Below are positions 13,437 to 34,035 of a stretch of DNA of 49,856 nt, piece by piece (position 1 is the stretch's first letter; every line of letters starts with the position of its first letter). The position numbers and the translations under genes were made by a program. The stretch covers positions 1-49,856 of IMG/VR virus record IMGVR_UViG_3300037313_000092; one strand, given 5' to 3'. Source of the stretch: a virus. The notes below the pieces were generated by a model. It was not told where the DNA came from, ran no database searches, and was given only the letters and a program-made list of their open reading frames with translations.

Positions 13437-13582
13437 TGCCGGTGTTGTCGTGCCATCTCGCTACGGGGAAACCTGTTTCGGGAACGGAGGCCCGTGGATG
13501 ATTTCGGGTTTTCCTCACTAAGTGGCAGGCAGAGTATTTCGACCGGGCAATTCCGCCCATGACTAGACTAAGGAGCAAGACA

Positions 13583-14485
13583 ATGGCTACTTCCAAGGCT
13601 TCCACTCCGACGAAAGCAGGCGAAGTTCCTGCGAACATCCACCCGCATGTTTCCTATCACGACATGACCAACGCCGCAGTCGCCCGCATTGACGCCATGC
13701 TCAAAGGCGGTGTCGAGGCCGTGACGTTCATTGCATCGGCGCTGCTCGTCGGCTATCTCGCCCAAAAGACCGGGACCGGGCCAAGCACGAAGATGGATGT
13801 CATCCGCGACGAATTCAAACTTCTGCTCAAAAAGAAGGGTCTCGGAGGGACGCAATCGAACAAGTATATCGACTACGCCATGACGTCGGCGCGCAAGATG
13901 TACACGGAATGCCAGTACGGCATGGAAATGGCTGCACTCATCGCCGCGACCACTCCGGACAAGGCGCACAACGCGGTCAAGGCATGGGTGTCACGTCACT
14001 GCACGGGCAAGAAAACCGAACATGGCTTCAAGCTGTCCGATGCATTGAACAAGCTCAACGTCTATGCTGTTTTCATCGGCGCGGAGGCCGATCCTCAGAG
14101 GCCTGAAACCCTCGCCGATCCGACCAACGGCGCCGACCCCAAGGCCGCGAAGGTGAACAAGGCGCGCAAGGCGCTGGCGGCGAAGGTCGACAAAGACCCT
14201 GAAGTCCTCCGGCAGGTCTCGGCCGAAAAACTGGCGGACACCGTCTCGAAGGTGATCACGTTCGACAAGCTGATCATTCGCCACGTCCAAACCATCTCCA
14301 ACGAAAAGACGCTACGTGACGAGATGGAAGCGGTCATGGCTGCCTACAATGCGCGGCTCGCCGATCTCCGCAAGTCCATCGGCTCCGACAAGGCCAAGAA
14401 GCCTGAACCAAAGCTCGCGAACAAGCGCACGAAGACCAAGCCCGACGCCAAGGCCAAGCCGGAGCAAGAAGCCATCGCGGCGTAG
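13583..14485 (+). CDS. Early protein with Lys/Ala/Pro-rich histone-H1-like C-terminal tail (possible DNA-binding protein)
   Basis: ATG at 13583 with AAGGAG 7 nt upstream. 300 aa, GC-rich. The tail reads KAKKPEPKLANKRTKTKPDAKAKPEQEA. Confidence 0.6.
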   Translation: MATSKASTPTKAGEVPANIHPHVSYHDMTNAAVARIDAMLKGGVEAVTFIASALLVGYLAQKTGTGPSTKMDVIRDEFKLLLKKKGLGGTQSNKYIDYAMTSARKMYTECQYGMEMAALIAATTPDKAHNAVKAWVSRHCTGKKTEHGFKLSDALNKLNVYAVFIGAEADPQRPETLADPTNGADPKAAKVNKARKALAAKVDKDPEVLRQVSAEKLADTVSKVITFDKLIIRHVQTISNEKTLRDEMEAVMAAYNARLADLRKSIGSDKAKKPEPKLANKRTKTKPDAKAKPEQEAIAA

Positions 14486-14514: not shown

Positions 14515-14546
14515 ACCCTAGGGGTTCATTCCCCTAGGGTTTTTTC
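14515..14546 (+). terminator. Rho-independent terminator
   Basis: Perfect 10-bp stem ACCCTAGGGG/CCCCTAGGGT with loop TTCATT, followed by T6. Confidence 0.7.
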
Positions 14547-14939: not shown

Positions 14940-14966
14940 TTCGGTCGCTTAGGCGATCCTCAAAGG

Positions 14967-15008
14967 CCCATGGTGTCCCTCTGCTCCGGGGATGCCGTGG
15001 GTCTTTTT
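14967..15008 (+). terminator. Rho-independent terminator
   Basis: 13-bp stem (CCCATGGTGTCCC/GGGATGCCGTGGG, with 3 G-U pairs) and a 9-nt loop, followed by TCTTTTT. Confidence 0.5.
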
Positions 15009-15020
15009 GCGTTTGTACAC

Positions 15021-15095
15021 AGCGGGTTAGCTTAATTGGCGAAAGCGACTGCCTTTGAAGCAGTCTAGATATCGGTTCAAGTCCGGTACCCGCTG
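15021..15095 (+). tRNA. tRNA-Gln (anticodon UUG)
   Basis: Hand-folded cloverleaf. The acceptor stem is AGCGGGT/ACCCGCT and the D stem is GCTT/AAGC with GG in the loop. The anticodon stem is ACTGC/GCAGT with loop CTTTGAA. The T arm is ATCGG-TTCAAGT-CCGGT, the discriminator is G, and CCA is encoded at 15096-15098. Confidence 0.85.
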
Positions 15096-15121
15096 CCAAA
15101 TTCCACTTAATGGAGAATACA

Positions 15122-16483: not shown

Positions 16484-16543
16484 ATGCTTTTGTATATCTA
16501 TTGGATGGTCATGTTTGACCAGATGTGGAAGGTGCGTCCATGA
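16484..16543 (+). CDS. Upstream mini-ORF (19 aa), coupled to the GGCT-like gene
   Basis: AAGGAG 7 nt upstream of the ATG. The peptide is MLLYIYWMVMFDQMWKVRP. Its TGA overlaps the ATG at 16540. Confidence 0.3.
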   Translation: MLLYIYWMVMFDQMWKVRP

Positions 16544-16938
16544 CCCGTGTGTTCGTATACGGCACGCTGAAGAAGGGCTACGGCAATTCTCACTTACTGA
16601 GAAACGCTGAGTTCGTCGGGCATGGCTACACCATCGAGACCTACCGGATGTTCAACGTTGGTTTCCCGATCATCCGTGAGTGCGAGGACGGCAACCCTGT
16701 ATACGGTGAGGTCTATGAGGTCGATGATCAGACCCTGAAGAACCTCGATCGCCTCGAAAATGAAGGCGTCATGTACGATCGCAAGGTCGTCAATGTCGGC
16801 CTGCCTTGCGGCAAGGACACACCAATCATCGAGCATGGTGTCTCCATCTACGTCGGCAATCCGGAGTACTGGGACAAACACACTCCGGCGCCATATACCC
16901 ACCACAATACTTACGGAGAACTCGAATGGCATCCGTGA
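16540..16938 (+). CDS. Gamma-glutamylcyclotransferase (GGCT/AIG2-like) family protein
   Basis: 132 aa. It has the N-terminal VFVYGTLKKGYGNSHLL and YGEVYEVDDQTLKNLDRLE, the family signature with the conserved acidic residue. Confidence 0.75.
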   Translation: MTRVFVYGTLKKGYGNSHLLRNAEFVGHGYTIETYRMFNVGFPIIRECEDGNPVYGEVYEVDDQTLKNLDRLENEGVMYDRKVVNVGLPCGKDTPIIEHGVSIYVGNPEYWDKHTPAPYTHHNTYGELEWHP

Positions 16939-17159
16939 CCGAAAAGATGTTCGTTGTGTACAGTATTAAACAACCCAATGAACCAAATCCGGGCGAAATC
17001 GTCATTCAGCGCGCTAGGCTCACAGCAGGCGAGGCGAGGCGAGATGTAGAAGAGTACGCCCGGAGTTGTCCCGGTGCTACATTCTATGTAGGCAGGATCA
17101 CCCCGGTCACACGATGTTCGTACAACCTCAATCCACGATTGGAGATCGATGATGTCTGA
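16926..17159 (+). CDS. Small protein of the amidoligase operon
   Basis: 77 aa. The ATG lies 13 nt inside the GGCT stop region. Confidence 0.45.
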   Translation: MASVTEKMFVVYSIKQPNEPNPGEIVIQRARLTAGEARRDVEEYARSCPGATFYVGRITPVTRCSYNLNPRLEIDDV

Positions 17160-17364
17160 CCGCACCTGCTACATCGACGGGATGCCTTGCGACTGTACGT
17201 TCCATGATGTTCTCAACGACGGCTGCCCTCGTGATGAATACGTTCACGAGGAAGATCAAGACTACTCGGACTGCGTCGATGAACCCGAACTCGAAGCCTT
17301 CATCGATCGTGAATACTACGCACAAAACCACGGAGCACATGATGACGAAACCCGCAGATTTTAA
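17149..17364 (+). CDS. Small very acidic Cys-rich protein
   Basis: 71 aa (MMSDRTCYIDGMPCDCTFHDVLNDGCPRDEYVHEEDQDYSDCVDEPELE...). It overlaps both neighbours. Confidence 0.5.
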   Translation: MMSDRTCYIDGMPCDCTFHDVLNDGCPRDEYVHEEDQDYSDCVDEPELEAFIDREYYAQNHGAHDDETRRF

Positions 17365-18202
17365 CAAGGTCAAGGACTGGCTTCACAGCCTTGCTGAGGT
17401 GAAAGAAAACTCCACGGCGCGGTATGCTACTTTCAACGCCACTCAGCAGACCACGACTTCGGGTGCGGAGGTCTGTTTCCATAACATTTCCACCCGGTGC
17501 AACGGCGCCACGATATTGGGCATTGCGTTCCAAGGCTACGGCGGTTTCCGCGAAGGCGATAGATTCCGCCCGGCGATCGAGAGTGATTTGTATACGAATA
17601 TCACTTACCCGTTCGTCAATTACTCGGGCTACCACTACAACGAGGTTTCACTCCAATGGCTGGAATGTATTCTGGACCCGGCGGGTCCGTTCAAGACGCT
17701 GCTGCCTCTGATGAACACGGCCGATCCGGTGAAAGTGCAGGAACAATACGGCTTTATCTTCCCGGATGTTTCTTCGATCCCCGCACGCCTGACGTGGTGC
17801 TTCGCGATCGCGTCTCGGCTTGGCTTTGCGAATGCCCGGGTCGTCTGGCGTTACTTGCATCTCTTGGCGAAGGGTCTGGACAAGAAGACGGCCTTCTTGA
17901 TCGCGGGTGGGTTTGAACACGAAGTCCGAGACGGTGTTCTGACCGGCAAGATCATCAAGAGCTATACCGCCGGGTTCCTCGGTGTGGATGTCACAGCCTA
18001 CGCCGGCAGGTTCTTGACGGCTACCCCAGTTGCAGATAAACCCTACCGGGAGTTTAGCCCTGGGACATACGGTTCCTCAGAAGTCTTCAAGTCCGGCAAG
18101 ATCGACATGGCGAAGCTGCGGTTCGATAGTTGGGATGAAGTCATCGAGTACACCCAGAAGCGCGGCCGCGAGCAGTCCGAGACGTTGAAGATCGCTGCCT
18201 AG
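17339..18202 (+). CDS. Unknown protein of the amidoligase operon
   Basis: ATGATG at 17339 with GGAG upstream. 287 aa. No motif recognised. Confidence 0.55.
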   Translation: MMTKPADFNKVKDWLHSLAEVKENSTARYATFNATQQTTTSGAEVCFHNISTRCNGATILGIAFQGYGGFREGDRFRPAIESDLYTNITYPFVNYSGYHYNEVSLQWLECILDPAGPFKTLLPLMNTADPVKVQEQYGFIFPDVSSIPARLTWCFAIASRLGFANARVVWRYLHLLAKGLDKKTAFLIAGGFEHEVRDGVLTGKIIKSYTAGFLGVDVTAYAGRFLTATPVADKPYREFSPGTYGSSEVFKSGKIDMAKLRFDSWDEVIEYTQKRGREQSETLKIAA

Positions 18203-18210
18203 GAGGTTCT

Positions 18211-18846
18211 ATGGTCGGACTACAAGGCTGGCGGTATCACGTCGTCGGCGGAGACAAAGACATTGAGAAGATGATGGACGAGGCATGTGCGATTTCATCA
18301 TCGCTACAGAGAGCCGAGATCGTTATCTTCTCAGGCGGCACGGATGTTGATCCATCGGTTTATGGGCAGGGGCGCCACAATAAGACGCAACCGCCTGACA
18401 CCGACCGTGATAGGATCGAGCAAGCCATATACCATGCTTGTGTCGCCAAGAAAAAGTACCTCATCGGCATCTGCCGTGGGGCACAACTCCTGAACGTACT
18501 CAACGGCGGCCAGTTGTGGCAGCATATCGATGGGCACCACGGTCCACATCCGTTGATATACTATGATGAAGGCCAGAACAAAGTCATGGTTCCGGTGACA
18601 TCGGATCATCATCAATTGATGAAACCAACGGCGGACGGACGACTGTGGGGTGTTGCGACGGAGAGCCATCGCCGTGAAAGCCCCGGTATCGTTCAGACAA
18701 CTTCCAAATACCATAACTCAGACCCCGAGATTGTCTTCTACAAGGCGACACGGAGCCTGTGTTACCAGCCCCATCCAGAGTGGGGTATCGCGAGCGATCG
18801 TGATTTGTTTATGAATTGTGTCCGGAGGCTTATGCTAGGCGGATGA
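18211..18846 (+). CDS. Class-I glutamine amidotransferase / peptidase C26-like gamma-glutamyl hydrolase
   Basis: AGGAGG RBS. The nucleophile elbow is GICRGAQLLNVLNGG. SDHHQ and QPHPE (the QFHPE equivalent) are also present. 211 aa. Confidence 0.75.
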   Translation: MVGLQGWRYHVVGGDKDIEKMMDEACAISSSLQRAEIVIFSGGTDVDPSVYGQGRHNKTQPPDTDRDRIEQAIYHACVAKKKYLIGICRGAQLLNVLNGGQLWQHIDGHHGPHPLIYYDEGQNKVMVPVTSDHHQLMKPTADGRLWGVATESHRRESPGIVQTTSKYHNSDPEIVFYKATRSLCYQPHPEWGIASDRDLFMNCVRRLMLGG

Positions 18847-18998
18847 AATATTATCAACGCTATGTTACGTTCGAGGAGGTTCCTGACCACGCGAAAGATA
18901 AGCTTTTTCAGGAGCTTCTAGACCACCTCGGTTTCAAAGTCTTGGCGGAAGAAACGCCGGATTATGATGCGTATTCGCTTGAAAAGGAAAATACTTAA
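18843..18998 (+). CDS. Small acidic protein of the amidoligase operon
   Basis: ATGA overlap upstream and TAATG overlap downstream. 51 aa (MKYYQRYVTFEEVPDHAKDKLFQELLDHLGFKVLAEETPDYDAYSLEKENT). Confidence 0.45.
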   Translation: MKYYQRYVTFEEVPDHAKDKLFQELLDHLGFKVLAEETPDYDAYSLEKENT

Positions 18999-20341
18999 TG
19001 TGCGGCATCGTCGGCGTCATGGCCGATAAACTATCGACTGGAGATATTCTTAAGTTCAAGGATATGTTCACGTTCGCCCAAGTCCGAGGCGACGATGGAG
19101 CGGGGATTATCGCTGTTCCGAAGAAGGACAACATCGGTAATGTTCGAACCCGAAAGACGTTGTGGTCCTCAGGTCACTTAGTGACAACGAAGGATTATGA
19201 CGATGTGACCAAAGGCGAGCTTAGTATCTTGATCGGCCATGCTCGTCAACCCACGAAAGGCGCATCAAAGATCGATAATGTCCACCCGCATCACTCTGGG
19301 CATATCCATCTTGTCCACAATGGTACGATGCATTACGTCGGCGGGAGTACTGTCGGTATCAATGAAAGCGACAGCAAAGTCATCTGCAAGACTATCGCCG
19401 AAAAGGGTGCGAAACACTTTGTGGAAAACTCGTCTGGAGCATACTGCCTGCTTTGGGTAGACACAGAAAAACAGACGATGAACTTCCTTCGCAACCGTGA
19501 ACGCCCTTTGTGGGTTGTTGAAGAACGTTTCACAAAGAACTCTCCGTACGTCCATCGTATGTGGTGGGCTTCTGAGTTATGGATGGTTACGATTGCCCTG
19601 AGCAGGTATGCCGGGTACGACAAGGATTGCTTCAAGGCTTTCCAACTTCCGGTAAACGATCACTATGAGTTCCCGTTGCCCAACCAGACGTACGGGCTGC
19701 GCGATCCAGTCGTCACTAAGATCGAGAAACCGACATCGTATTCATCAGGTACGATGTGGGACGGATATTTCTTCGACGACGATCAAGATGTTACAGGTAC
19801 AGGGACGGGTAAAAGTGTGGTCCCTTTTCGACTCGAAAGTTCAAAAAGTACCAGCGACAACAGCAAAAACTCCACAAGCGTCACGACAAGCGGAGGGTTT
19901 AAGTATACCCCTCCCGTGGAGCGTGTGGATGGAACTCCTCCTTTCGTCTCTCCCATGAGGGTACTCGAACGCTCGCGAGATGATGCTCGGTTGGCAACTG
20001 CAAAACAAGAGAACATCGAACGCACCAAGCAACCTTCGACGGACGAGGAAAAGGAGGCTAACCCTTCGGGTGGTACGTTTCCGCGAGGAGCCTATAACTT
20101 CTCTCAAGACACCTGTACGTCGGCAATCCGTCCGATTGAAAGCTTCGCGGAGAAAGACCGAAAGCGGGTCATGGACTTGGTATCGGGTGGCCCTTGCGTG
20201 TGGTGCAGTACCAAGCCTGTGTTTGTTGGCCCTCATACTCCTCTTATTTACCCCGTTCGTTTTACTCAAACGCGCGGTGAATACGTTTGCCACGCCTGTG
20301 TCTCGGACTTGGATGTCCAGAGAATGGTGGGGATTAACTGA
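18998..20341 (+). CDS. Class-II (Ntn) glutamine amidotransferase domain fused to a Ser/Thr-rich linker and a C-terminal Zn ribbon
   Basis: The nucleophile motif is MCGIVGV. RGDDGAG, GHARQPT, VHNG and ESDS are also present. The C-terminal part has CVWC...CHAC. No PRTase or synthetase domain is recognisable. Confidence 0.75.
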   Translation: MCGIVGVMADKLSTGDILKFKDMFTFAQVRGDDGAGIIAVPKKDNIGNVRTRKTLWSSGHLVTTKDYDDVTKGELSILIGHARQPTKGASKIDNVHPHHSGHIHLVHNGTMHYVGGSTVGINESDSKVICKTIAEKGAKHFVENSSGAYCLLWVDTEKQTMNFLRNRERPLWVVEERFTKNSPYVHRMWWASELWMVTIALSRYAGYDKDCFKAFQLPVNDHYEFPLPNQTYGLRDPVVTKIEKPTSYSSGTMWDGYFFDDDQDVTGTGTGKSVVPFRLESSKSTSDNSKNSTSVTTSGGFKYTPPVERVDGTPPFVSPMRVLERSRDDARLATAKQENIERTKQPSTDEEKEANPSGGTFPRGAYNFSQDTCTSAIRPIESFAEKDRKRVMDLVSGGPCVWCSTKPVFVGPHTPLIYPVRFTQTRGEYVCHACVSDLDVQRMVGIN

Positions 20342-20365
20342 TCCAATTGCGCTTGTAGGAGCCTC

Positions 20366-21184
20366 ATGTCTACTGTCTTTAATCTTGCTGGGATTACTAT
20401 CGGGGCAGACCCCGAACTCTTCGTTGCCCGCCGCGGTGTCATCGTCTCCGGCCACACCCTCCCTTTGGGAACAAAAGCCGAGCCCCTTAAAACCACCAAC
20501 GGTGCCGTACAAGTCGACGGGATGGCGGTGGAAATGAATATCCCCCCTACCACCGAGAAGGTAAAGTTCATCCAGAGTTGTGGCTACGTCCTCCAAGACC
20601 TTGAAAAGCTTATCAAAAAATCTGACCCGGAGATGTACCTTGTCTGCCAGCCGAGTGCTCGTTTCACGGAGACGTATCTTGCGGAGGTGCCTGAGAGTGC
20701 CAAAGAACTCGGCTGCAATCCTGATTGGGATGCGTATGATATGCAGCAGAACCCTCGGCCTAACGCTCCCGCAGGTCTTCGGACTGCTGGGGGTCACGTC
20801 CACATTGGTTGGGGTGATGGGTTTAACTGTGACAGCCTTGAGCATATCGGGCTCTGTGCTGAGGTAGCCAAGCAATTGGATTACTGCATTGGCCTTCCTT
20901 CGCTGGGATGGGACCTGGATAATGAACGCCGCAGCCTTTACGGCAAAGCCGGTGCGTTTCGCCCCAAGCCTTACGGCATGGAGTACCGGGTGTTGTCTCC
21001 TATGTGGCTAACCTCGGTGACGTATTTGTCTGTGATCTGGAGTGGATGTTTCAAAGCCCTCCGAATGATCAACGAAGGCGACATCCTTGATGAACGCTTC
21101 GACGGTACCGCCAGAAATCTCATCAATAACAATACGATTTCTTGGCGGACGCTATATCCTGACATCGAGAAGGCTATTCGATGA
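20366..21184 (+). CDS. GS/GCS-fold carboxylate-amine ligase (phiEco32-like COOH-NH2 ligase type 2 kind)
   Basis: AGGAG RBS. Motifs are GADPELFV, VQVDGMAVEMN and GGHVHIGWG. 272 aa. Confidence 0.6.
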   Translation: MSTVFNLAGITIGADPELFVARRGVIVSGHTLPLGTKAEPLKTTNGAVQVDGMAVEMNIPPTTEKVKFIQSCGYVLQDLEKLIKKSDPEMYLVCQPSARFTETYLAEVPESAKELGCNPDWDAYDMQQNPRPNAPAGLRTAGGHVHIGWGDGFNCDSLEHIGLCAEVAKQLDYCIGLPSLGWDLDNERRSLYGKAGAFRPKPYGMEYRVLSPMWLTSVTYLSVIWSGCFKALRMINEGDILDERFDGTARNLINNNTISWRTLYPDIEKAIR

Positions 21185-22170
21185 CGCTTTGGAACGTCGC
21201 ATTTAATGATACGCTCTCAGACCAGGATTTGAGTACGTTCACCGTAGGACAGGCAGCGCCCTTCCCACAACCTGTGCCTACTGCTCAACCCGGCTTCTTC
21301 GGAAGACCGCCGAGTTACTACTTCGAAGAAGAAACCCATCAAGGTGTTTTTAACGCCAATCGAAGTAGTCTACAGGCTTGGAACGCATCGCATCGTCCCG
21401 GACCGGCATGGACGGAGGCTGACGAAAATCAACTCGTCAATAAACTCTGTATGACGTGGTTCGGTGAGCCATACAACTGGAGTGATTGGACGACAGAGTA
21501 CCAACCACTGAACTTGGATAAGCTCGACCCAATCGTCAAGCGTAAACGTCCGTTGCCATCGTTCAAGATCGATTACCAGACGTACGCAGAGATCAAGCTT
21601 CGTCTGCTGAACACGATCATCTTGATCAACGGTGTTCCTTTCTACGTTGGCAAGATCAAGCAGAAAGGGGAAGACTACGTTCTCGGGGTAACCGGCGATG
21701 GTCAGTCTGGCTACTTTACAGTGAAATACTCGGATATCAAGGACCTCAGGTCTTTGCCTCCGATGTATATCACAACGTCCAAAACCGGATGGTTGGCGCG
21801 ACACCCAGGCCGTGTTTACCAACAAGGTGCTACGCGGCAGAACACCATGATGTTCAGCATCGATGGTCGAGATAGTTGGGGCATAGACAGCTCAAATATG
21901 CTGCGTGCTATAAGCCGCCGCGAAAACAGAAAGTGGAATGAGACTTTGTTAAGTCTTATGAAAAGCGGTGATCTGACCAATACTCGTTTATCTGACGAGG
22001 TTGCAGTCTTAAGATCGAGTGATAAAATCCTGGCCTGCTATAAGGCGCGGCCTTTGGGTTTTATTCAAGACAACACCGTCACACTGATTGACGAAGACGA
22101 TATACTCCAAGGCTGGATTGAAGCATCCGCCGAGGAAGTTGGTTTAGAACTCAGGGTCGGCAATGTTTAG
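21181..22170 (+). CDS. Unknown protein between the two ligases
   Basis: 329 aa with an ATGA overlap to the upstream gene. No motif recognised. Confidence 0.55.
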   Translation: MTLWNVAFNDTLSDQDLSTFTVGQAAPFPQPVPTAQPGFFGRPPSYYFEEETHQGVFNANRSSLQAWNASHRPGPAWTEADENQLVNKLCMTWFGEPYNWSDWTTEYQPLNLDKLDPIVKRKRPLPSFKIDYQTYAEIKLRLLNTIILINGVPFYVGKIKQKGEDYVLGVTGDGQSGYFTVKYSDIKDLRSLPPMYITTSKTGWLARHPGRVYQQGATRQNTMMFSIDGRDSWGIDSSNMLRAISRRENRKWNETLLSLMKSGDLTNTRLSDEVAVLRSSDKILACYKARPLGFIQDNTVTLIDEDDILQGWIEASAEEVGLELRVGNV

Positions 22171-23089
22171 CGAAAACGCCAAAATGCTTTTCCACGAACT
22201 CTGCAATAAGCAGAAGAAAGTCGCGGATGTGGGCATCGAACTCGAGATCGAAGGATTAAACCTTCCTTCGCCTGTGCCGCATTGGAACTCCAAGCCAGAA
22301 GGTAGTCTCCAGAACGGCATCGAGTATATCACAAAACCAATCAAAGCCGATGCTGTCGAGGTTTACGTGGATAACCTCAGGAAGTACATCCAGCTTTCCG
22401 GCGGTGAGATCAAGCCGAGCTATCGATGTTCGACACATATCCATGTGAATATGCTGCCTGAGGCAACGTCGGATATGCTTGGCTTCTACGTCATCTTCAT
22501 GATGTTCGAACCTCTATTCCTGACGTTGTGCGGCAATCAACGAAACGGCAATCTGTTTTGTATGTCATCGTACGATACCGGCGATGCGGTGATTTTGTTT
22601 AATACCCTCTGCCGTATCGTCCACCAAACACGAACACATGGTTTTGGGTTCAGCCGAGGGAAGTACTCCAGCCTGAATGCCGATAGGCTGAGTGATCTTG
22701 GCACACTCGAAGTCCGCTCATTTCCACTAAGTGTGGATGGGTTTACCGTGTCCAAGTGGGTCAAGTGGCTCATGAACATGAGGCAGATGGCGCGCGACGA
22801 GACGGACAAGACCTACCGTGGGTTGTGGAAACAAGTCCGGCAGAACGGGGACATCAGCGCCCTTAAGATTTTCGACAGTGATTTGTTCTCGATTTCCAAT
22901 GCCCATGAGCTTCTGGAACTCGGGACGGAAGGGGCATATGAACTCACCAAAGTCCTGAAGACGTGGTATTATGATAACCCCGAGGTGCGGAAGCCTAGGA
23001 AGAAGAAGTCGCCTCCCAGCTTCACGGTACCGACACCGTCTGATATGGACGCGGTGATTGATAGCCTTGTAGACGACACGGAGTTCTAA
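22163..23089 (+). CDS. Putative amidoligase (Amidoligase_2 kind, GS-fold carboxylate-amine ligase)
   Basis: Motifs are VGIELEIEG, EGSLQNGIEYITKP and STHIHVN. 308 aa. Confidence 0.65.
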   Translation: MFSENAKMLFHELCNKQKKVADVGIELEIEGLNLPSPVPHWNSKPEGSLQNGIEYITKPIKADAVEVYVDNLRKYIQLSGGEIKPSYRCSTHIHVNMLPEATSDMLGFYVIFMMFEPLFLTLCGNQRNGNLFCMSSYDTGDAVILFNTLCRIVHQTRTHGFGFSRGKYSSLNADRLSDLGTLEVRSFPLSVDGFTVSKWVKWLMNMRQMARDETDKTYRGLWKQVRQNGDISALKIFDSDLFSISNAHELLELGTEGAYELTKVLKTWYYDNPEVRKPRKKKSPPSFTVPTPSDMDAVIDSLVDDTEF

Positions 23090-23926
23090 ATGATCATTCA
23101 TCCGTACAAGCTCGGCAGCCGTAGCGCCAAACGCATCAGGGCGGCTGTCAATGCGTTGAGTGATAGGAAGGTCTGCTGGGTACTACAGCGCAAGCCACGC
23201 CATCCCAGAGCCCTTATAATCAATTGGGGAGGGCAGGAAATTCACTTCCCCGAAGGCCAGTGCTGGATCGTCAATCCTCCATCCGAAACCCAAGTAATGG
23301 CCGACAAGATCAAGTTCTTCGAAAGGACCAAACATGACAAAAACCTCCTGCAATGGACAACTGACCGATCTACTGCTTCCGAATGGGGAACTAAAGGAGA
23401 GAAAGTTTTCGTTCGGCACCTCACTAGAGGAAGTGGTGGACGAGGTATTGATGTATGGTCCGCTTCCGGAGGGACGGTTATTCCAATGGCACCTCTATAC
23501 ACTCGGCACCAAAAGAAAACTCACGAATACCGTGTACACATGGGTCGAGCGCTCAACGGATCAGAGTTCAGCCCGATCCTAGTTCAACGCAAAGTCTGGA
23601 GGCCAGAACTAAATGGACAGCCAAAGTCATGGGACGTACGCAGTCACGACAACGGTTTCATTTTCCAAGCTTACCCAGAGGACAAGCTCACCACACTGCC
23701 CAAAGAGATATTCCGGGTGGCTACAACGGCCATGGCTAAGTACTTCCCGGAAATGCACTTTGCGGCGTTGGATGTACTTTACCACCAACCCAGCGATACA
23801 GCAGTTATCTGCGAAGGTAACACTGCACCCGGGTTGGAGAACCATACCGTGGACGTCTACGCCAAATATTTCTTGGAGCTAGAGGCTGATTTCAAGAAAG
23901 AACGACTAAGTCCTTGGAGTAGTTAA
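23090..23926 (+). CDS. ATP-grasp ligase (RimK-like)
   Basis: It has the Gly-rich loop LTRGSGGRGIDVW, plus HEYRVH and ALDVLY...ICEGNTAPGLE (the E-x-N Mg site). 278 aa. Confidence 0.7.
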   Translation: MIIHPYKLGSRSAKRIRAAVNALSDRKVCWVLQRKPRHPRALIINWGGQEIHFPEGQCWIVNPPSETQVMADKIKFFERTKHDKNLLQWTTDRSTASEWGTKGEKVFVRHLTRGSGGRGIDVWSASGGTVIPMAPLYTRHQKKTHEYRVHMGRALNGSEFSPILVQRKVWRPELNGQPKSWDVRSHDNGFIFQAYPEDKLTTLPKEIFRVATTAMAKYFPEMHFAALDVLYHQPSDTAVICEGNTAPGLENHTVDVYAKYFLELEADFKKERLSPWSS

Positions 23927-24089: not shown

Positions 24090-25667
24090 TTGATTAGTTC
24101 TTTTAATTCATTGATTAAGTCCCATATTCCCTGCCCAGATCAGATCAATTGTAGGTCTTCTGATGCTGCTACTGATTACGGTAGCCGTATTTATTGCTTT
24201 AGTTGTAGGAAGTCATTCAAGACAGTGGATAATATTCAATCAATCAAGCAAGACGAGGATTACTCGCCTAAAGAGTTCACACTAGAGTACCTGCCTTGGC
24301 GTGGTCTCACCAAAGAAACAATGCAGTTCTTTGGTATGAAGACCCGCGTCACCCCTGAAGGTAGACCACATTCTGTTATGTATCCCTACCCGGCAGGTGG
24401 GGTGAAGAACCGTGAGTTCAGTAATCATAAGTTCTGGTCTACAGGGCCGATGTCTGCTCCGGGTTTGTTTGGGCAGGACAAGTTCCCTGCCGGGTCGGCT
24501 AAGGCAATCACCATTACAGAAGGAGAACCCGATGCGGCCTCGGCGTTTCAAATGCTTGGGTCTCAATATCCTGCTGTATCGATCCGTTCATCAGCTACAG
24601 CACGGAAAGACTGTCAGCAGGCTTTTGAGTATCTCAACTCATTCGAGCGTATCTACCTTTGCTTGGACAACGACGAAGCGGGACGGAAAGCTACTCAAGA
24701 GATCGCTTCGCTATTCGACTTCAATAAAGTCTATCATGTCAAGCTAGAAGGACATAAAGATGCCAACGCCTTCCTCGAAGCCCGCCAATCCGAACAGTTC
24801 AAGCGAATTTGGTGGAACGCTCGAAGGTACCTTCCCGAAGGTATCGTATCCTCACATTCTGAGTTTAGAAGCATCCTTGAGGCAGATGTATCCAAACCAA
24901 GCGTCCCTTACCCTTTCGATGGGCTCAACGCCAAACTCCTCGGTATCAGAACTGGTGAGTTCGTTCTTGTTACTGCTCCAGAAGGCATTGGGAAGACTGA
25001 GTTCATCCGACGAATTGAACACCATCTCCTTCGAAATACAGACGCAAGTATCGCCTGTATCCATCTCGAAGAGACAAAGGCTCGTCAACTTAAAGGATTG
25101 GCTGGACTACACCTTAGAACAGCAGCTCACCTCCCTGATGGGGCTGTATCTCTTGACGAAATAGACGGCGCGCTAAAGGAACTTACTCATGGGCGGGATG
25201 ACCGTCTTCATATCTATAGTCATTTCGGCAGTGATGACCCTGACGTTCTCATTAACTCCATCAGGTTCCTTGGTGCTGTTTGTGGTTGTAAGTATATTTT
25301 CTTGGATCATATCACAATGGTGGTCTCGGGGTTAGCAGATGAAGACGAACGAAGAACATTGGACTACCTTTCTACTAAGCTTGCGACTTTGTGTCATGAC
25401 CTTGACATCACGATTTTCTGCATCAGTCATGTCAACGATGATGGCAAAACCAGAGGATCGCGAAACATCTCTAAGGTCGCTAATCTCAGAATTGATCTTG
25501 CTAGAGACCTCGTTGCGGAACTTGAAGCAGACCGCAACAAGACATTTGTCACAGTCTCAAAGAACCGTTACGCAGGCAAGACGGGTCCCGCTGGAGTTCT
25601 GAAGTTCGACCCGGAAGAGTTCATGCTTAAGGATGACGATGGCATAGTTATGCCTCCAGTCGAATAA
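24090..25667 (+). CDS. Bifunctional primase-helicase (T7 gp4-like)
   Basis: It has the Zn finger CPDQINC...CFSC and the TOPRIM motifs ITEGEPDAASA and LDNDEAGRKA. Walker A is APEGIGKTEF and Walker B is IFLDHITM. The start is a TTG and is uncertain, because an ATG at 24083 opens only a 4-codon ORF. Confidence 0.85.
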   Translation: MISSFNSLIKSHIPCPDQINCRSSDAATDYGSRIYCFSCRKSFKTVDNIQSIKQDEDYSPKEFTLEYLPWRGLTKETMQFFGMKTRVTPEGRPHSVMYPYPAGGVKNREFSNHKFWSTGPMSAPGLFGQDKFPAGSAKAITITEGEPDAASAFQMLGSQYPAVSIRSSATARKDCQQAFEYLNSFERIYLCLDNDEAGRKATQEIASLFDFNKVYHVKLEGHKDANAFLEARQSEQFKRIWWNARRYLPEGIVSSHSEFRSILEADVSKPSVPYPFDGLNAKLLGIRTGEFVLVTAPEGIGKTEFIRRIEHHLLRNTDASIACIHLEETKARQLKGLAGLHLRTAAHLPDGAVSLDEIDGALKELTHGRDDRLHIYSHFGSDDPDVLINSIRFLGAVCGCKYIFLDHITMVVSGLADEDERRTLDYLSTKLATLCHDLDITIFCISHVNDDGKTRGSRNISKVANLRIDLARDLVAELEADRNKTFVTVSKNRYAGKTGPAGVLKFDPEEFMLKDDDGIVMPPVE

Positions 25668-27061: not shown

Positions 27062-27216
27062 TCAGGATAACTGCCCCGCATTTTGTCGCTTGTGTGATTA
27101 TGGGGAACGATATAGTTTCCAAAGCAGCGCCAATCTTACGTTATATGGTAGGGTGGCCTAAACATCAGGTTATCCTCTACAGCGAAAGGAAAGGATGGAC
27201 GGTCGAACTGTTATAA
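27058..27216 (+). CDS. Small protein (52 aa) preceding the DNA polymerase
   Basis: TTG start with AAGGAGG 4 nt upstream (IRITAPHFVACVIMGNDIVSKAAPILRYMVGWPKH...). It overlaps the polymerase start by 22 nt. Confidence 0.35.
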   Translation: MIRITAPHFVACVIMGNDIVSKAAPILRYMVGWPKHQVILYSERKGWTVELL

Positions 27217-29087
27217 TCGATATCGAGGCTAACGGCTTCAACCCGGACAAGATACATTTCATTGTATGCCGGGACTACAAGACAGACGAGATAGAGGTAT
27301 TTAGAGATGTTCACGTCAATCCAGAGCCTTTTCTGGACTTTATGGGTAGCGTCGGTTGCATCGTTGGCCATCATGTACTTGGTTACGATGCTCCTGTGCT
27401 TAAGCGCTTGGTCCCTGTATGGGTGGAGAAATCTAAGTCTCTTCGCACAATCGACACTCTTGTTCTCAGCCGCCTTCTGGACTTTAGTATTTCTGGTGGG
27501 CACAGCATTGAAGCTTGGGGTCAGCGCCTAGGCATCGAGAAGAAAGGCGTTGATATTACCGATTGGTCGATACCGACCCAACAGATGCTAGATCGGTGTA
27601 TTTCAGACACAGCGGTAAATCGCGCCCTTCTCAAGCGTTTCCAAAGGTATCTCGATAGTCCTACATGGCAATCCGCCATAGAGGTTGAACACTTCATAGC
27701 CGAACGTTGCCGTGAATTACATGACAACGGGTTTCATTTTTCCCTTGACAAGGCTCAGGGGTTATGGTATAAAATAGATGCTGAGTTAAAAGAACTTGAT
27801 CACGAACTCCTTACCGCCTTTCCGCCTAAGGCTCGGTTTATCCGAGAGGTCCATCCTAGAGTTACGAAATTTGGTACACTCCATCGACAAGATTTTAGAT
27901 GGAGAGTTGACAAAGACCTATCGGATTTCAACGGGGGACCATTTTCATTATTCGAGTACGAGGAATTTAATCCTGGCTCTACTCCACAGATTATCGAAAG
28001 GTTAAACGAGGCTGGTTGGAAGCCTACTGAGAAAACTAAAGGACATATTGAAGCTCTAAGGTCCCGTGACGAGGAACGTATTGCAAAGTTCCGTACCACT
28101 GGATGGACCGTCTCCGAAGAGAATTTAAGCACTCTTCCAGACACCGCACCTCCTGCTGCTAAGACACTGGCTCGTCGTATTCTTATCGCGTCAAGACAAA
28201 GAACTCTAACAGAATGGATCAATAACTATAACCAAGAAACACACAGAATCCATGGAAGCTTCAACAGTATTGGAGCTTGGACACACCGGATGTCCCACAC
28301 GAACCCGAATACAGGTAACATCGCTAGAGAAGATGCTGTCTTCGGACCTGAAATGCGGAGCATGTGGTCAACCCCTGAAGGGTCTTATCTGGTCGGCGTG
28401 GACGCGGAAAGCATCCAGCTCAGGGTCCTTGCGCACTACATAAACGATCCTGAGTTTACCCAATCATTACTAACAGGAAAGAAAGAGGATGGTACTGACC
28501 CGCATAGCCTTAACAAAAGAGCTTTGGGAGGCGCCTGTAAAAGTCGAAATGACGCTAAGACTTTCATCTACGCCTGGCTTCTCGGAGCAGGTGTCGGAAA
28601 AGTTGCAGGAATTTTGGGCTGCGACTATCGAACAGCTAAAGCCGCAGTTGAGCAGTTTATTGAATATTACCCCGGACTCAAGCGTCTCAAACGAGACGTA
28701 ATACCTAAGGACGCCCAGAAGGGTTTCTTCCAAGGCTTCGATGGCAGATGGGTCAAGATAGTTGGAGAAGACCAAAGTTCGCGAGAACACTTCTGTCTAG
28801 CCGGGTATCTTCAGAATGGCGAAACTACAGTAATGAAACACGCCATGATGATATGGTATCCGAAGCTAATCTCGATGGGCATTCCTTTTAAGATTGTGAA
28901 CTTCGTTCATGATGAATGGCAAACAGAAGTACCTGATTACGACACCGGATTATTGGTCGCTAATACACAAGCGAAAGCAATTGCCAGTGCCGGTGAGAAA
29001 CTTCAACTCAGATGCCCAATGGCAGGCAGCATTATCTCAGGCCATGGAACGATTGCTATTGGCTCTAACTGGTTGGAAACCCACTAA
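27195..29087 (+). CDS. Family A DNA polymerase with 3'-5' exonuclease domain
   Basis: Exo I is IIDIEANG and Exo II is HHVLGYDAPVL. Motif A is VGVDAESIQLRVLAH, motif B is RNDAKTFIYAWLLGAG and motif C is FVHDEW. 630 aa. Confidence 0.9.
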   Translation: MDGRTVIIDIEANGFNPDKIHFIVCRDYKTDEIEVFRDVHVNPEPFLDFMGSVGCIVGHHVLGYDAPVLKRLVPVWVEKSKSLRTIDTLVLSRLLDFSISGGHSIEAWGQRLGIEKKGVDITDWSIPTQQMLDRCISDTAVNRALLKRFQRYLDSPTWQSAIEVEHFIAERCRELHDNGFHFSLDKAQGLWYKIDAELKELDHELLTAFPPKARFIREVHPRVTKFGTLHRQDFRWRVDKDLSDFNGGPFSLFEYEEFNPGSTPQIIERLNEAGWKPTEKTKGHIEALRSRDEERIAKFRTTGWTVSEENLSTLPDTAPPAAKTLARRILIASRQRTLTEWINNYNQETHRIHGSFNSIGAWTHRMSHTNPNTGNIAREDAVFGPEMRSMWSTPEGSYLVGVDAESIQLRVLAHYINDPEFTQSLLTGKKEDGTDPHSLNKRALGGACKSRNDAKTFIYAWLLGAGVGKVAGILGCDYRTAKAAVEQFIEYYPGLKRLKRDVIPKDAQKGFFQGFDGRWVKIVGEDQSSREHFCLAGYLQNGETTVMKHAMMIWYPKLISMGIPFKIVNFVHDEWQTEVPDYDTGLLVANTQAKAIASAGEKLQLRCPMAGSIISGHGTIAIGSNWLETH

Positions 29088-33461: not shown

Positions 33462-33610
33462 GAGTAAACACCGATAAACCGGAGTATGAGGAGTTGAAGA
33501 AAAAGTATATTGAGCTGTACCAACTCACGACCGGGCAAAATTATACATTAGAGGCTCACATGAAGCTAATTGACGAGATCGGGGCTTTGCAAAACAAGGT
33601 CATTGAATGA
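33458..33610 (+). CDS. Small helical protein (50 aa)
   Basis: TTG start in a TTGA overlap, and an ATGA overlap downstream. Hand-found. Confidence 0.35.
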   Translation: MRVNTDKPEYEELKKKYIELYQLTTGQNYTLEAHMKLIDEIGALQNKVIE

Positions 33611-34035
33611 AGTCAATCTACCTCATAGGTAGCCTCCGAAACGACAAAGTCCCTCAGGTTGGAAATCTCCTGAGGGACAACGGTTGGGATGCTTTCGATG
33701 ATTGGTATGGCGCAGGCCATGAAGCAGACGATATGTGGAGGGATTATGAGCAGACACATCGCAAGAGGTCTTTACGCGACAGTGTTTATGGTTATGCCGC
33801 TCGTCATGTTTTCGCTTTTGATAAGTACCACCTCGATCGGTGCGATCTTGCTTGCCTCGTTATGCCTGCCGGACGATCTGGGCACCTTGAGTTGGGGTAT
33901 TTCGTTGGTAGTGGCAAGCCCGGTTTTATCCTTCTTGACGGCGTTCCTGAGCGCTATGACGTTATGTGGAATTTCGCTACTGACATCTTCACGTCGCCAG
34001 AAGAACTCTTGAATGGTCTTCAGAGCTTTCGATGA
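33607..34035 (+). CDS. Nucleoside 2-deoxyribosyltransferase-like protein
   Basis: Motifs are SIYLIGSLRN and GRSGHLELGYFVGSGKPGFILL. 142 aa. Confidence 0.6.
   Translation: MKSIYLIGSLRNDKVPQVGNLLRDNGWDAFDDWYGAGHEADDMWRDYEQTHRKRSLRDSVYGYAARHVFAFDKYHLDRCDLACLVMPAGRSGHLELGYFVGSGKPGFILLDGVPERYDVMWNFATDIFTSPEELLNGLQSFR

Follow-up and report, generated by a model that had tools for sequence, protein, structure and literature searches.

What does a compact run of eleven genes in a metagenomic phage genome make? The window, meaning the whole stretch of DNA analysed here (49,856 nucleotides), corresponds to a complete podovirus-like metagenomic genome of ~49.7 kb without a close sequenced relative. As the preliminary description had read it, positions 16540-23926 of the + strand carry eleven densely packed ORFs (g1 to g11, Table 1), all present and each free of internal stops. 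The junctions from g1 to g11 measure, in order, -13, -11, -26, +8, -4 (ATGA), -1 (TAATG), +24, -4 (ATGA), -8 and 0 nt. The run is located in the early/replication arm of the genome, and g11 is followed by a 163-nt gap with a promoter-like TTGACA-17-TATGCT site and then by a primase-helicase gene. Upstream, at a distance of 1.4 kb, is a tRNA-Gln gene.

Table 1. Predicted features of the cassette region, with positions in the window.
Feature	Position	Strand	Description	Basis
Leader	16484..16543	+	19-codon putative leader ORF, MLLYIYWMVMFDQMWKVRP	Sequence reading; AAGGAG Shine-Dalgarno
g1	16540..16938	+	Gamma-glutamyl(amine) cyclotransferase, GGACT/AIG2-like, 132 aa	Pfam GGACT, PHROG 2520
g2	16926..17159	+	Lineage-specific ORF, 77 aa	No Pfam/PHROG match
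g3	17149..17364	+	Acidic lineage-specific ORF (pI 4.1), 5 Cys, 71 aa	No Pfam/PHROG family match
g4	17339..18202	+	Conserved cassette protein, 287 aa	Homologue search, AF2, jackhmmer
g5	18211..18846	+	Class-I GATase-fold gamma-glutamyl hydrolase (Peptidase_C26), 211 aa	Pfam, PHROG 7218
g6	18843..18998	+	Acidic lineage-specific ORF, 51 aa	No Pfam/PHROG family match
g7	18998..20341	+	Stand-alone class-II (Ntn, Cys1) glutamine amidotransferase, low-complexity linker, C-terminal 4-Cys zinc ribbon	GATase_6, PHROG 4736
g7 zinc ribbon	20195-20299	+	Residues 400-434	Homologue alignment
g8	20366..21184	+	phiEco32-type COOH-NH2 ligase type 2, 272 aa	PF14395, PHROG 3815
g9	21181..22170	+	N-terminal extension and C-terminal ~200-aa double beta-barrel, 329 aa	PHROG 11055, AF2, jackhmmer
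g9 C-domain	~21553-22170	+	Double beta-barrel (g9C)	
g10	22163..23089	+	Amidoligase_2 carboxylate-amine ligase, 308 aa	PF12224, PHROG 7469
g11	23090..23926	+	ATP-grasp ligase, closest to RimK-type alpha-L-glutamate ligases, 278 aa	PHROG 2599

Judged by its sequence, the region represents a divergent version of the phage amidoligase cassette of the phiEco32/LUZ24/RIO-1 type and not a new system. Cassettes of the same type occur in phiEco32, LUZ24/PaP3, PA11, RIO-1/HP1 and Zobellviridae phages, and the ligase gene was found in 318 of 50,697 GenBank phage records. Gene-neighbourhood analysis revealed a conserved gene order in 40 IMG/VR contigs and in the GenBank phages GP100, Pecta, UFV-P2 and Kuravirus Paul; the 42 related loci compared below comprise the 40 contigs and two GenBank phages. 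Across the related loci an eight-gene synteny is strict, and in most of them the primase-helicase and DNA polymerase genes adjoin the cassette. The ligase family is phage-restricted and practically missing from the genomes of cells: across 185,579 species genomes, scanning yielded just 7 loci, each of them on a MAG contig that was either short or about 50 kb in length. [quoted passage not shown] In HP1, the homologous genes are expressed immediately upon infection (PMC7082346). In nearly all of the full-text literature searches, no experimentally defined product of the cassette was found, in line with the preliminary description. New here are the recognition of g4 and g9C as conserved members, the zinc ribbon of g7 and the finding that the small ORFs are not conserved.

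Three of the genes encode predicted ATP-dependent carboxylate-amine ligases that retain the conserved motif residues. The tie of g8 to the phiEco32-type family was correctly drawn: it matches PHROG 3815 at 4.6e-69 and Pfam COOH-NH2_lig (PF14395) at 7.6e-6, barely over the cut-off (25.8 vs 25 bits), and all 32 aligned homologues match PF14395. Residues D15, E17, D51, E56, H144, H146, E206 and R208 are invariant in this alignment. For g10, matches were obtained to Amidoligase_2 (PF12224, 1.4e-5; also 32/32 homologues) and PHROG 7469 (3.4e-33), with E26, E28, E30, H92, H94, N96, R127, E183 and R185 invariant among homologues. The GS-fold label of both enzymes comes from the Pfam family definition; profile searches against the PDB returned no relatives of either, and their mutual similarity by hhalign was not significant. 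The third ligase, g11, had no Pfam match on its own and was placed by PHROG 2599 (RimK-like, 1.1e-39) and by its family profile, which ranked RimK structures first (7qys, 5.7e-7; 5zct, 7e-6), followed by CdnC and Ddl. Among 29 g11 homologues, the Pfam models matched were Dala_Dala_lig_C (16), RimK (14) and R2K_2 (9).

The other three enzymes, g1, g5 and g7, are predicted to cleave amides and likewise retain their conserved residues. Matches of g1 to Pfam GGACT (9.8e-24) and PHROG 2520 were accompanied by PDB matches to YtfP (1xhs, 6.4e-13) and AIG2L1 (3jub, 7e-9), in which LDRLE aligns with LDDFE, including the catalytic Glu; Y7, G8, L10 and E73 are invariant among 12 homologues. In the case of g5, Peptidase_C26 (3.4e-22) and PHROG 7218 (4e-36) were matched, the nearest solved relatives include Lin1909 (3fij, 1.3e-6) and PuuD (6vtv, 2.7e-4), the latter a gamma-glutamyl-GABA hydrolase (NCBIfam), and C88, H188 and E190 are invariant among 30 homologues. 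The GATase_6 match of g7 (8.8e-12) is confined to its N-terminal ~290 aa, residues 1-294 match PHROG 4736 (6.6e-53), and in the PDB it matches nothing but the glutaminase domains of PurF and GlmS. All glutamine-binding residues of PurF/GlmS are retained, whereas their synthase domain is absent. Alignment of 32 homologues showed C2, R30, H81, R83, T86, N108, G109 and D125 to be invariant, as are the ribbon cysteines C400, C403, C431 and C434. Profile searches thus upheld all six enzyme assignments of the preliminary description, although the GS fold stands by family definition. The six enzymes are of soluble type, and the domains normally fused to them are missing; because the amidotransferases come without the usual synthase partners, they are not ordinary genes of purine, asparagine or hexosamine biosynthesis.

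The two larger proteins without an enzymatic assignment had been proposed as possible new components. They are conserved cassette components, and they are not new: each is a divergent representative of a family that accompanies the cassette elsewhere as well. Pfam gave nothing significant for g4 beyond a single sub-threshold DUF6505 match, while 31 metagenomic homologues (query not counted) share 45-65% identity with it. Its AF2 model is confident (pLDDT 90, pTM 0.90), and Foldseek found no fold match in the PDB (top E=1.3). Using jackhmmer, relatives of g4 were recovered as ~280-480-aa ORFs in 20 loci, with few exceptions directly 5' of the C26 gene, or of the GAT-II gene where C26 is absent. 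The family conserves C-H, R, E, H and W, except that in the clade of the window the E is replaced by A and the H by F.

For g9, no significant Pfam match was obtained, and PHROG 11055, matched at 1.7e-10, has no assigned function there. Its N-terminal extension is clade-specific (residues 1-40 disordered, 44-106 helical), and the C-domain carries an invariant loop, R207-x-P209-x-R211...Q215-G216. A g9 homologue was recovered by jackhmmer in 41 of the 42 loci, between the g8 and g10 homologues except in L033, where the order is rearranged. The AF2 model (pLDDT 85) resembles ~190-aa uncharacterised phage proteins in BFVD (TM 0.55-0.77); against the PDB it shows only a weak EF-P/eIF5A-like beta-barrel similarity (E 0.015, TM about 0.15-0.26), with no similarity to EF-P found at the sequence level. 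The g9C family spans 4,027 clusters at 50% identity, no Pfam model falls on its members among the matches listed, and its C-termini are not conserved.

Taken together, these assignments suggest a cytoplasmic pathway acting on a small amine or peptide, on which it would build, amidate, extend and trim a gamma-glutamyl conjugate joined by an amide bond, a tentative reading to which we give a probability of roughly 0.45. Gamma-glutamyl-amine chemistry is favoured because g5 lies near PuuD, g1 near YtfP and AIG2L1 (the latter being the human gamma-glutamylamine cyclotransferase), and g7 is a glutaminase without a synthase domain. Gamma-glutamylation of amines is established for GS-fold ligases, PuuA among them, although g8 and g10 belong to families other than those of PuuA and glutamine synthetase. 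In the proposed scheme, g8 and g10 would each convert a carboxylate to an acyl-phosphate and couple it to an amine, the acceptor being a metabolite (a polyamine, amino-acid or peptide amine) rather than a protein terminus. Docking through its invariant zinc ribbon, g7 would deliver glutamine-derived ammonia to one of them, turning a carboxylate into a carboxamide, and the RimK-like g11 would extend a terminal carboxylate by an amino acid in alpha linkage, probably glutamate. The PuuD-like g5 and GGACT-like g1 would free amines of their gamma-glutamyl groups, serving deprotection, recycling or control of the product. The Arg-rich barrel g9C may serve both ligases as a substrate-binding or scaffolding subunit without catalytic function, because its gene overlaps both of theirs and, wherever it was recovered except in L033, lies between them. 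The weakest step is the purpose, which may be an early rewiring of host metabolites for replication. Counting against the gamma-glutamyl conjugate, three ligases exceed the needs of simple gamma-glutamylation, the cassette comes with no oxidase, dehydrogenase or transporter, and the near-universal, non-enzymatic g9C could itself be the modified target.

The published alternative, that the cassette modifies peptidoglycan precursors (Iyer 2009, Hardies 2013), we regard as unlikely. The ligases would remake or alter gamma-Glu, diamino-acid and D-Ala-D-Ala-like stem-peptide linkages on cytoplasmic precursors, the glutaminase would amidate a stem-peptide carboxylate like MurT/GatD, and the hydrolases would trim host precursors; an altered wall could then block superinfection or ready the cell for lysis. 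This hypothesis has been put forward for homologous cassettes (PMC5498523, PMC11945000, PMC10580990), and the papers found contain no experimental test of it. The pairing of glutaminase and ligase follows MurT/GatD logic (PMC3267633), and during directed evolution of a P. aeruginosa phage the amidoligase and GAT-II genes acquired missense changes in parallel (PMC11450229). Furthermore, the GP100 copy carries the annotation D-Ala-D-Ala ligase, Ddl structures are among the g11 profile matches, and the Dala_Dala_lig_C matches of about half of the g11 homologues fit peptidoglycan equally well. However, the g11 profile ranks RimK above Ddl, and g1 and g5 are nearest to gamma-glutamyl-amine enzymes rather than muropeptide enzymes. 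The Pfam and PHROG scans gave no Mur-ligase domain, and scans gave no nucleotide-sugar-binding, racemase, peptidoglycan-binding or membrane-anchor match.

Protein conjugation resembling Pup/PafA, LysW/LysX or RimK-S6 appears improbable. Here the R-x-P-x-R...Q-G loop of g9C, or a host protein (ribosomal protein S6, for example), would receive a glutamate, gamma-glutamyl or short-peptide adduct from the ligases, with the hydrolases as deconjugases or deamidases. RimK, the nearest relative of g11, glutamylates a protein C-terminus; PafA and Dop are GS-fold enzymes, the fold assigned to g8 and g10; and EF-P/eIF5A, proteins modified on a loop, are what the model of g9C weakly recalls, a conserved protein without obvious catalytic residues set between both ligases in nearly all loci. 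Yet the EF-P likeness is weak and has no sequence-level counterpart, the g9C termini vary, the Pfam scan gave no Pup_ligase match, and g1 and g5 resemble small-molecule enzymes. A Pup/LysW-like carrier, one option of the preliminary description, is further disfavoured because g2, g3 and g6, the natural candidates, are not conserved and end unlike Pup or LysW (no GGQ/GGE, no EDWGE-type ending). Among the related loci, g2 and g6 have no homologue and g3 a single weak one (L005), all three are absent even from the closest relative (L003), and many loci consist of six or seven large genes with no small ORF.

We give little credence to a set of auxiliary metabolic genes (AMGs) for general nitrogen or amino-acid supply, in which faster host glutamine, glutamate or glutathione turnover would supply phage production. 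It was proposed for Poriferisphaera phage ZRK32, whose record contains a g8 homologue and whose preparations promoted growth with nitrate or ammonium, evidence that is correlative and not gene-level (PMC10945688), and for OM43 phages the cassette is listed as an AMG (PMC10580990). The strict synteny and two dedicated non-enzymatic proteins favour instead one specific product. Moreover, AMGs as a rule closely copy genes of the host, whereas this ligase family is hardly seen in cells. Hypermodification, in which the ligases would load phage DNA bases, nucleotides or a tRNA with amino acids or amines, is very doubtful: some viral contigs carry amidoligase and amidotransferase genes together with genes for thymidine hypermodification (PMC8989533), replication genes and a tRNA-Gln gene lie close by and the g7 ribbon could bind nucleic acid, but the scanned ORFs of the window genome include no thymidine-hypermodification genes (5-hmU DNA kinase, aGPT-Pplase, dUMP/dCMP hydroxymethylase or TET/JBP homologue), and the Pfam/PHROG scans show no nucleic-acid-binding or glycosylase-like domain in the cassette. 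The preliminary interpretation is, overall, partly supported.

Upstream of g1, a short leader ORF, uncertain as a real gene, opens with the ATG at position 16484, and its stop codon overlaps the g1 ATG.

The eleven genes make up a new and deeply diverged example of a phage cassette of the phiEco32/LUZ24/RIO-1 type. The cluster itself is already known; it is of interest for the question of its substrate, which dates back to 2009, and for two large protein families that lack annotation. The run of eleven plus-strand ORFs (g1 to g11) noted in the preliminary description was confirmed; the ORFs are tightly packed, with successive junctions of -13, -11, -26, +8, -4, -1, +24, -4, -8 and 0 nt. The cassette sits in the early/replication module of a virulent-type tailed-phage genome, with replication genes adjoining it and structural genes on the opposite strand, and no integrase was found among the window ORFs scanned. 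No sigma-70-like promoter was predicted directly 5' of the cassette. An exact direct repeat of 127 nt closes the window, as a result either of overlap in a circular assembly or of terminal redundancy in the form of direct repeats. Because this repeat is present at both ends, the window constitutes a complete genome, with a unique length of 49,729 bp. Exact copies of the 287-aa and 329-aa proteins are recorded on one JGI metagenome contig, of 49,856 bp. A megablast search of the window against known phages gave no nucleotide match.

Coordinates of the cassette and of the features discussed with it (positions in the window unless another genome is named)
Feature	Position	Strand	Remark
Direct repeat	1-127 and 49730-49856		identical copies
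Early/replication arm	~13.5 to 34.9 kb	+	contains the cassette
Gene 5' of the hairpins	13559-14485
Terminator-like hairpin	14515-14540	+	10-bp stem, then T run
Terminator-like hairpin	14962-15006	+	19-bp stem, then T run
tRNA-Gln	15021-15098	+	anticodon UUG
19-codon ORF	start 16484	+	good Shine-Dalgarno site; 5' of the eleven ORFs
Cassette, g1 to g11	16540-23926	+	eleven ORFs
287-aa protein (g4)	17339-18202	+	C-terminal end at 18191-18202
329-aa protein (g9)	21181-22170	+	C-terminal end at 22156-22170
Promoter-like site			TTGACA-17-TATGCT, in the 163-nt gap 3' of the cassette
Toprim/DnaB primase-helicase	24090-25667	+	next gene after the 163-nt gap
DNA polymerase	27195-29087
Nucleoside 2-deoxyribosyltransferase-like protein	33607-34035	+	end of the early arm
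Nucleoside 2-deoxyribosyltransferase-like protein	34013-34450	+	end of the early arm; with DUF4406
dATP/dGTP diphosphohydrolase, N-terminal domain	34431-34901	+	MazZ-like, PF18909, 2e-26
1,862-aa ORF	37771-43359	-	single ORF in the structural arm
Terminase, portal/adaptor, major capsid and tail genes		-
HNH homing endonuclease, GP100	7107-7574		inside the cassette
HNH homing endonuclease, UFV-P2	5668-6072		inside the cassette
g9C-family copy, viral contig L033	9021-9617	-
g9C-family copy, viral contig L033	11180-11737	+

Through profile searches with Pfam, PHROG and homologue profiles, all enzyme assignments of the preliminary description were found to stand. The first gene encodes a GGACT/AIG2 cyclotransferase (GGCT, g1; Pfam 9.8e-24) that is structurally nearest to YtfP of E. 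coli and to human AIG2L1; its LDRLE motif aligns with the catalytic LDDFE. The GAT-I-type enzyme g5 belongs to Peptidase_C26 (Pfam 3.4e-22) with an invariant Cys88/His188/Glu190 triad; its solved relatives include PuuD, Lin1909 and a protein of P. aeruginosa named "probable glutamine amidotransferase", and it scores 24 bits against the PuuD equivalog model, for which the cut-off is 266. In the class-II glutaminase (GAT-II, g7), Cys2, Arg30, His81, Arg83, Thr86, Asn108-Gly109 and Asp125 are invariant. Only residues 1 to ~290 match GATase_6/PurF/GlmS-type models, no synthase domain is present, and the C-terminus forms a CxxC...CxxC zinc ribbon that is invariant in all GAT-II homologues. An ordinary PurF, GlmS or AsnB enzyme, in which the glutaminase is fused to a PRTase, SIS or asparagine-synthetase domain, was rejected, as the NCBIfam purF and glmS models score just 29-44 bits (cut-offs 350-418) and extend over residues 1-112/159 alone.

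The three remaining enzymes are ligases. For g8, the Pfam match to PF14395 (COOH-NH2 ligase type 2; 25.8 bits, cut-off 25) is marginal on its own; PHROG 3815 is matched at 4.6e-69, PF14395 is matched by 32/32 aligned homologues, and the motifs D15/E17, D51/E56, H144/H146 and E206-x-R208 are invariant. The second ligase, g10, reaches 25.6 bits with PF12224 (Amidoligase_2; cut-off 22), a model that 32 of its 32 homologues also match, and its invariant motifs are E26/E28/E30, H92/H94 and E183-x-R185. Both were putatively assigned to the GS fold through the Pfam family definitions and the invariant acidic-strand, His-x-His and E-x-R motifs, and neither family profile found a sequence relative in the PDB. 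A paralogous relationship between g8 and g10 was rejected, with hhalign not significant beyond the common E-x-R motif. The ATP-grasp ligase g11 alone matched no Pfam model, ATP-grasp models included. It matched the RimK-named family PHROG 2599 at 1.1e-39, and its homologues match Ddl, RimK and R2K Pfam models, with PF08443 (RimK) found in 14/29. A 29-member g11 profile placed RimK first in the PDB (5.7e-7), ahead of CdnC and Ddl, and gave E 0.042 with ArgX (3vpb). Judging from their sequences, the six cassette enzymes look catalytically competent.

The cassette is widely distributed among phages. Searches of GenBank phage records with tblastn retrieved 287 records with g10 and 318 with g8, all at <60% identity, and the carriers comprise Pseudomonas LUZ24/PaP3/PA11-like phages, Escherichia Kuravirus (phiEco32-like) phages, Vibrio phages, Pseudoalteromonas RIO-1/HP1, Zobellviridae and others. 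The preliminary description had proposed a comparison of gene neighbourhoods; 40 IMG/VR loci were collected with g8 and set beside the loci from GenBank in tblastn, phmmer and jackhmmer searches, and one order recurs, namely a g4-family gene in variable presence, C26, GAT-II, the PF14395 ligase, the C-terminal ~200 aa of g9 (g9C), the PF12224 ligase and the ATP-grasp ligase. Many loci consist of exactly these core-order genes with nothing extra. The primase-helicase and DNA polymerase lie 3' of the cassette in most loci, and one subgroup has the primase-helicase 5' of the cassette and no polymerase inside the locus. In cellular genomes (185,579 species, one genome each) the ligase was found at seven loci only, all of them on phage-like MAG contigs, either short ones or ones of ~50 kb, and for this reason the family looks phage-restricted at this sensitivity. 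In GP100 and UFV-P2, an HNH homing-endonuclease gene falls between the GAT-II gene and a ligase gene, with the cassette gene order kept.

The six families (PF14395, PF12224, ATP-grasp, stand-alone GAT-II, C26 and GGCT) are common to the window and to the cassettes of phiEco32, LUZ24-PaP3, PA11, RIO-1-HP1 and Zobellviridae. As in the window, the phiEco32/LUZ24/RIO-1-type cassettes belong to virulent podoviruses, contain the invariant triad of ligase, ~190-aa protein and ligase, and adjoin the genes for a primase-helicase and a DNA polymerase. The gene order of the Zobellviridae GP100 and Pecta is identical to that of the window. In UFV-P2 and Kuravirus Paul, the ligase, the ~190-aa protein and the amidoligase come first, followed by GAT-II, ATP-grasp and GGCT. 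The GGCT gene is first in the window but last in LUZ24 and phiEco32. The window cassette is further set apart by identities of 25-45% to any GenBank phage, a ~120-aa N-terminal extension of g9, and three extra small ORFs.

Concerning the two large proteins, which the preliminary description had offered as possible new components, they are indeed unannotated, but the 42-locus comparison identifies g4 and g9C as recurring cassette families. A g9C homologue is present in 41/42 loci and lies between the two ligase genes in all but the viral contig L033, which has a rearranged order; the g9 gene of the window overlaps both flanking ligase genes. R207, P209, R211 and G216 are invariant across the family, and Q215, Y287 and G293 nearly so. 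In the AF2 model of g9 (pLDDT 85), a disordered N-terminal stretch is followed by a helical extension peculiar to the clade and by two beta-barrel modules. Its matches in BFVD are proteins of ~190 aa from CW02, Bjorn and Vibrio phages, none of them characterised (TM 0.55-0.77). Foldseek against the PDB gave a weak resemblance to EF-P/eIF5A/HEX-1 (E 0.015-0.1). A relationship to EF-P was rejected, with an hhalign probability of 0.1% against E. coli EF-P (an approximate sequence), and the g9C family profile had no sequence match in the PDB. Since the structural match is weak and neither profile nor hhalign supports it, the likeness is treated as a generic small-beta-barrel resemblance only.

Among 1.84 billion representatives searched by profile, 4,027 clusters at 50% identity fell into the g9C family. 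The homologues listed, namely the best 150 of the 4,027 clusters and 50 word-indexed ones, are stand-alone proteins of 136-354 aa without domain fusions; no Pfam domain was present in the 50 word-indexed homologues, which were listed with domain annotation, and NCBIfam gave no match to the window g9. Same-position proteins of LUZ24-like and Kuravirus phages are linked to g9C by weak hhalign matches (E 2.9e-4 and 8.8e-3), and the P-x-R...[KQ]-G motif and the position agree. This large unannotated phage family would merit a family definition. In L033, two g9C-family copies are found on opposite strands and the amidoligase is also inverted, so that this contig carries a rearranged or duplicated cassette.

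The g4 model (pLDDT 90, pTM 0.90) has no PDB match in Foldseek (best E = 1.3), and tblastn with g4 against known phages gave no match. With jackhmmer, g4 was tied to proteins in 20 loci, GP100 included, a grouping in which profile drift is possible and positional agreement is nearly constant. The g4-family genes lie nearly always directly 5' of C26, or of GAT-II where C26 is absent. Single hhalign runs between g4 and the ~285-320-aa proteins of UFV-P2 and GP100 were not significant. The wider family conserves a Cys-His pair, Arg, Glu, His and Trp. The window clade keeps Cys46 and Arg160 and differs from the known cassettes in that Ala and Phe replace the Glu (residue 164) and His (213), each conserved at 86% in the wider family. 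If the Cys-His pair, Glu and His form a metal or catalytic site, the activity of this clade may have been lost or changed.

In functional terms, the pathway would join carboxylates to amines three times, with one step using glutamine-derived ammonia, and the trimming enzymes of the cassette would cleave gamma-glutamyl-amine bonds. We favour a small molecule or peptide as the acceptor, because the two trimming enzymes are closest, among characterised proteins, to enzymes acting on gamma-glutamyl-amines (PuuD; YtfP/GGACT), GS-fold ligases are enzymes that gamma-glutamylate amines, and nothing like a conserved tag exists. The earlier reading of the region as a make-and-trim system is partly supported, the enzyme families being upheld by the profiles and the Pup/LysW tagging falling for want of a carrier.

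Known systems share parts of this logic. The Puu/Pau gamma-glutamyl-polyamine pathway pairs a GS-fold ligase (PuuA) with a C26 hydrolase (PuuD), as the window would; however, the window ligases come from other families assigned to the GS fold (no Gln-synt_C match), no PuuB/PuuC or other oxidoreductases were found, and an ATP-grasp ligase, a GAT-II and two unannotated proteins are added. The sole Puu/Pau part in the window is the PuuD-like C26, far below the equivalog cut-off. In butirosin biosynthesis, the ATP-grasp ligase BtrJ adds a gamma-glutamyl group that the AIG2/GGCT-fold cyclotransferase BtrG later removes, but this system depends on aminoglycoside genes and on an acyl carrier protein, of which the window has none. 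RimK, the S6/poly-alpha-L-glutamate ligase, is the best solved relative of g11, with the ATP-grasp core aligned over ~190 residues, but the likeness appears at family-profile level only, the N-terminal domain of g11 is shortened, and RimA/RimB partners are absent from the window. The lipid II amidotransferase MurT/GatD amidates a carboxylate through an ATP-dependent ligase supplied by a glutaminase on a subunit of its own (PMC3267633), and the same logic is proposed for g7 with g8 or g10. MurT has a Mur-ligase fold and GatD is a class-I GATase, whereas the window combines a class-II glutaminase bearing a zinc ribbon with ligases assigned to the GS fold.

As for the identity of the acceptor, many Pseudomonas phages are blocked in their replication when polyamines build up inside the cell (PMC9992862), which makes polyamines attractive, as a speculation. 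A serious rival is the modification of peptidoglycan precursors. Papers citing Iyer et al. 2009 (Mol Biosyst 5:1636) and Hardies et al. 2013 (J Virol 87:9189) describe a putative peptidoglycan-modification cassette (PMC5498523, PMC11945000, PMC10580990, PMC3890496), two of them stating it as a hypothesis only (PMC5498523, PMC11945000). No Pfam or PHROG match in the cassette points to a membrane or periplasmic protein. A correlative reading treats the cassette as a nitrogen AMG (PMC10945688). In addition, the HP1 cassette genes are expressed immediately upon infection (PMC7082346), and, in a directed-evolution study, both the amidoligase gene and that for GAT-II acquired missense changes in parallel (PMC11450229). 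A full-text literature search, covering the 2009 and 2013 papers through those that cite them, found no experimental substrate or product of the cassette.

We consider it unlikely that the cassette is a phage-exclusive protein-modification or counter-defence machine instead of a metabolite pathway. In the former version, by analogy with EF-P or Pup, the flanking ligases would place a gamma-glutamyl or amide group on the R-x-P-x-R...Q-G loop of g9C; in the latter, they would gamma-glutamylate host polyamines and so prevent the intracellular accumulation with which Pseudomonas brings phage replication to a halt. The defence/anti-defence libraries of PADLOC gave no match. If this reading were true, the g4 family, which has no solved-structure match, would represent a new kind of accessory enzyme. 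Genes for thymidine hypermodification (5-hmU DNA kinase, aGPT-Pplase, dUMP hydroxymethylase, TET/JBP) were not found by Pfam and PHROGs among the ORFs scanned, the small ORFs being partly covered.

Protein tagging of the Pup/LysW kind, put forward in the preliminary description as one possible role, was rejected, because the candidate carriers g2, g3 and g6 (77, 71 and 51 aa) are not conserved and lack diagnostic termini. The Pup-PafA/Dop and LysW-LysX systems do combine a GS-fold or RimK-family ATP-grasp ligase with a deamidase or hydrolase, a combination that the window may share, but the window has neither a conserved small carrier nor a Pup_ligase match, proteasome or lysine-biosynthesis genes. 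The three small ORFs end in IDDV, TRRF and KENT, without a GGQ/GGE or EDWGE terminus, and tblastn, phmmer and jackhmmer found no homologues of them in the related loci, even in the closest relative (L003), beyond one weak match to g3 in L005. The sole zinc ribbon of the cassette is fused to g7, whose tail is not conserved, and no lysine/arginine enzymes, such as LysZ/Y/J/K, lie downstream.

Few modules of several enzymes are more widespread in virulent phages than this cassette, whose carriers include candidates for phage therapy from the LUZ24 and Kuravirus groups, and it reaches a deeply diverged, uncultured podovirus lineage. That this lineage keeps all catalytic residues suggests that one particular chemistry is under strong selection. 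Any explanation has to account for the ligase/beta-barrel/ligase core in nearly every locus, the zinc-ribbon-tagged glutaminase, a C26 partner protein without a PDB match and the absence of a conserved small carrier. The identity of the product would reveal a new side of how phages take over the metabolism, the envelope or the proteome of the host cell.

In the window clade, most g9 homologues end in a single Ala (LELRA, LELSA, LNLAA), and nearly all g4 homologues end in -AA (KIAA, KLAA, KAA). At the sequence level these ends resemble ssrA/ClpX-type degrons; they are not kept in the wider g4 and g9 families.

Outside the cassette, a tRNA-Gln gene is located 1.4 kb 5' of this group of glutamine- and glutamyl-handling enzymes, a placement that is probably coincidental, since phage tRNAs are common. 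Just 5' of the tRNA gene, two strong hairpins resembling intrinsic terminators set the preceding gene apart from the block running into the cassette. At the end of the early arm, the two deoxyribosyltransferase-like proteins and the MazZ-like domain may serve nucleotide-pool editing, and no PurZ-like gene was found among the window ORFs scanned. In the structural arm, the 1,862-aa ORF presumably encodes an internal virion/ejection protein of the podovirus type, given its size and position.
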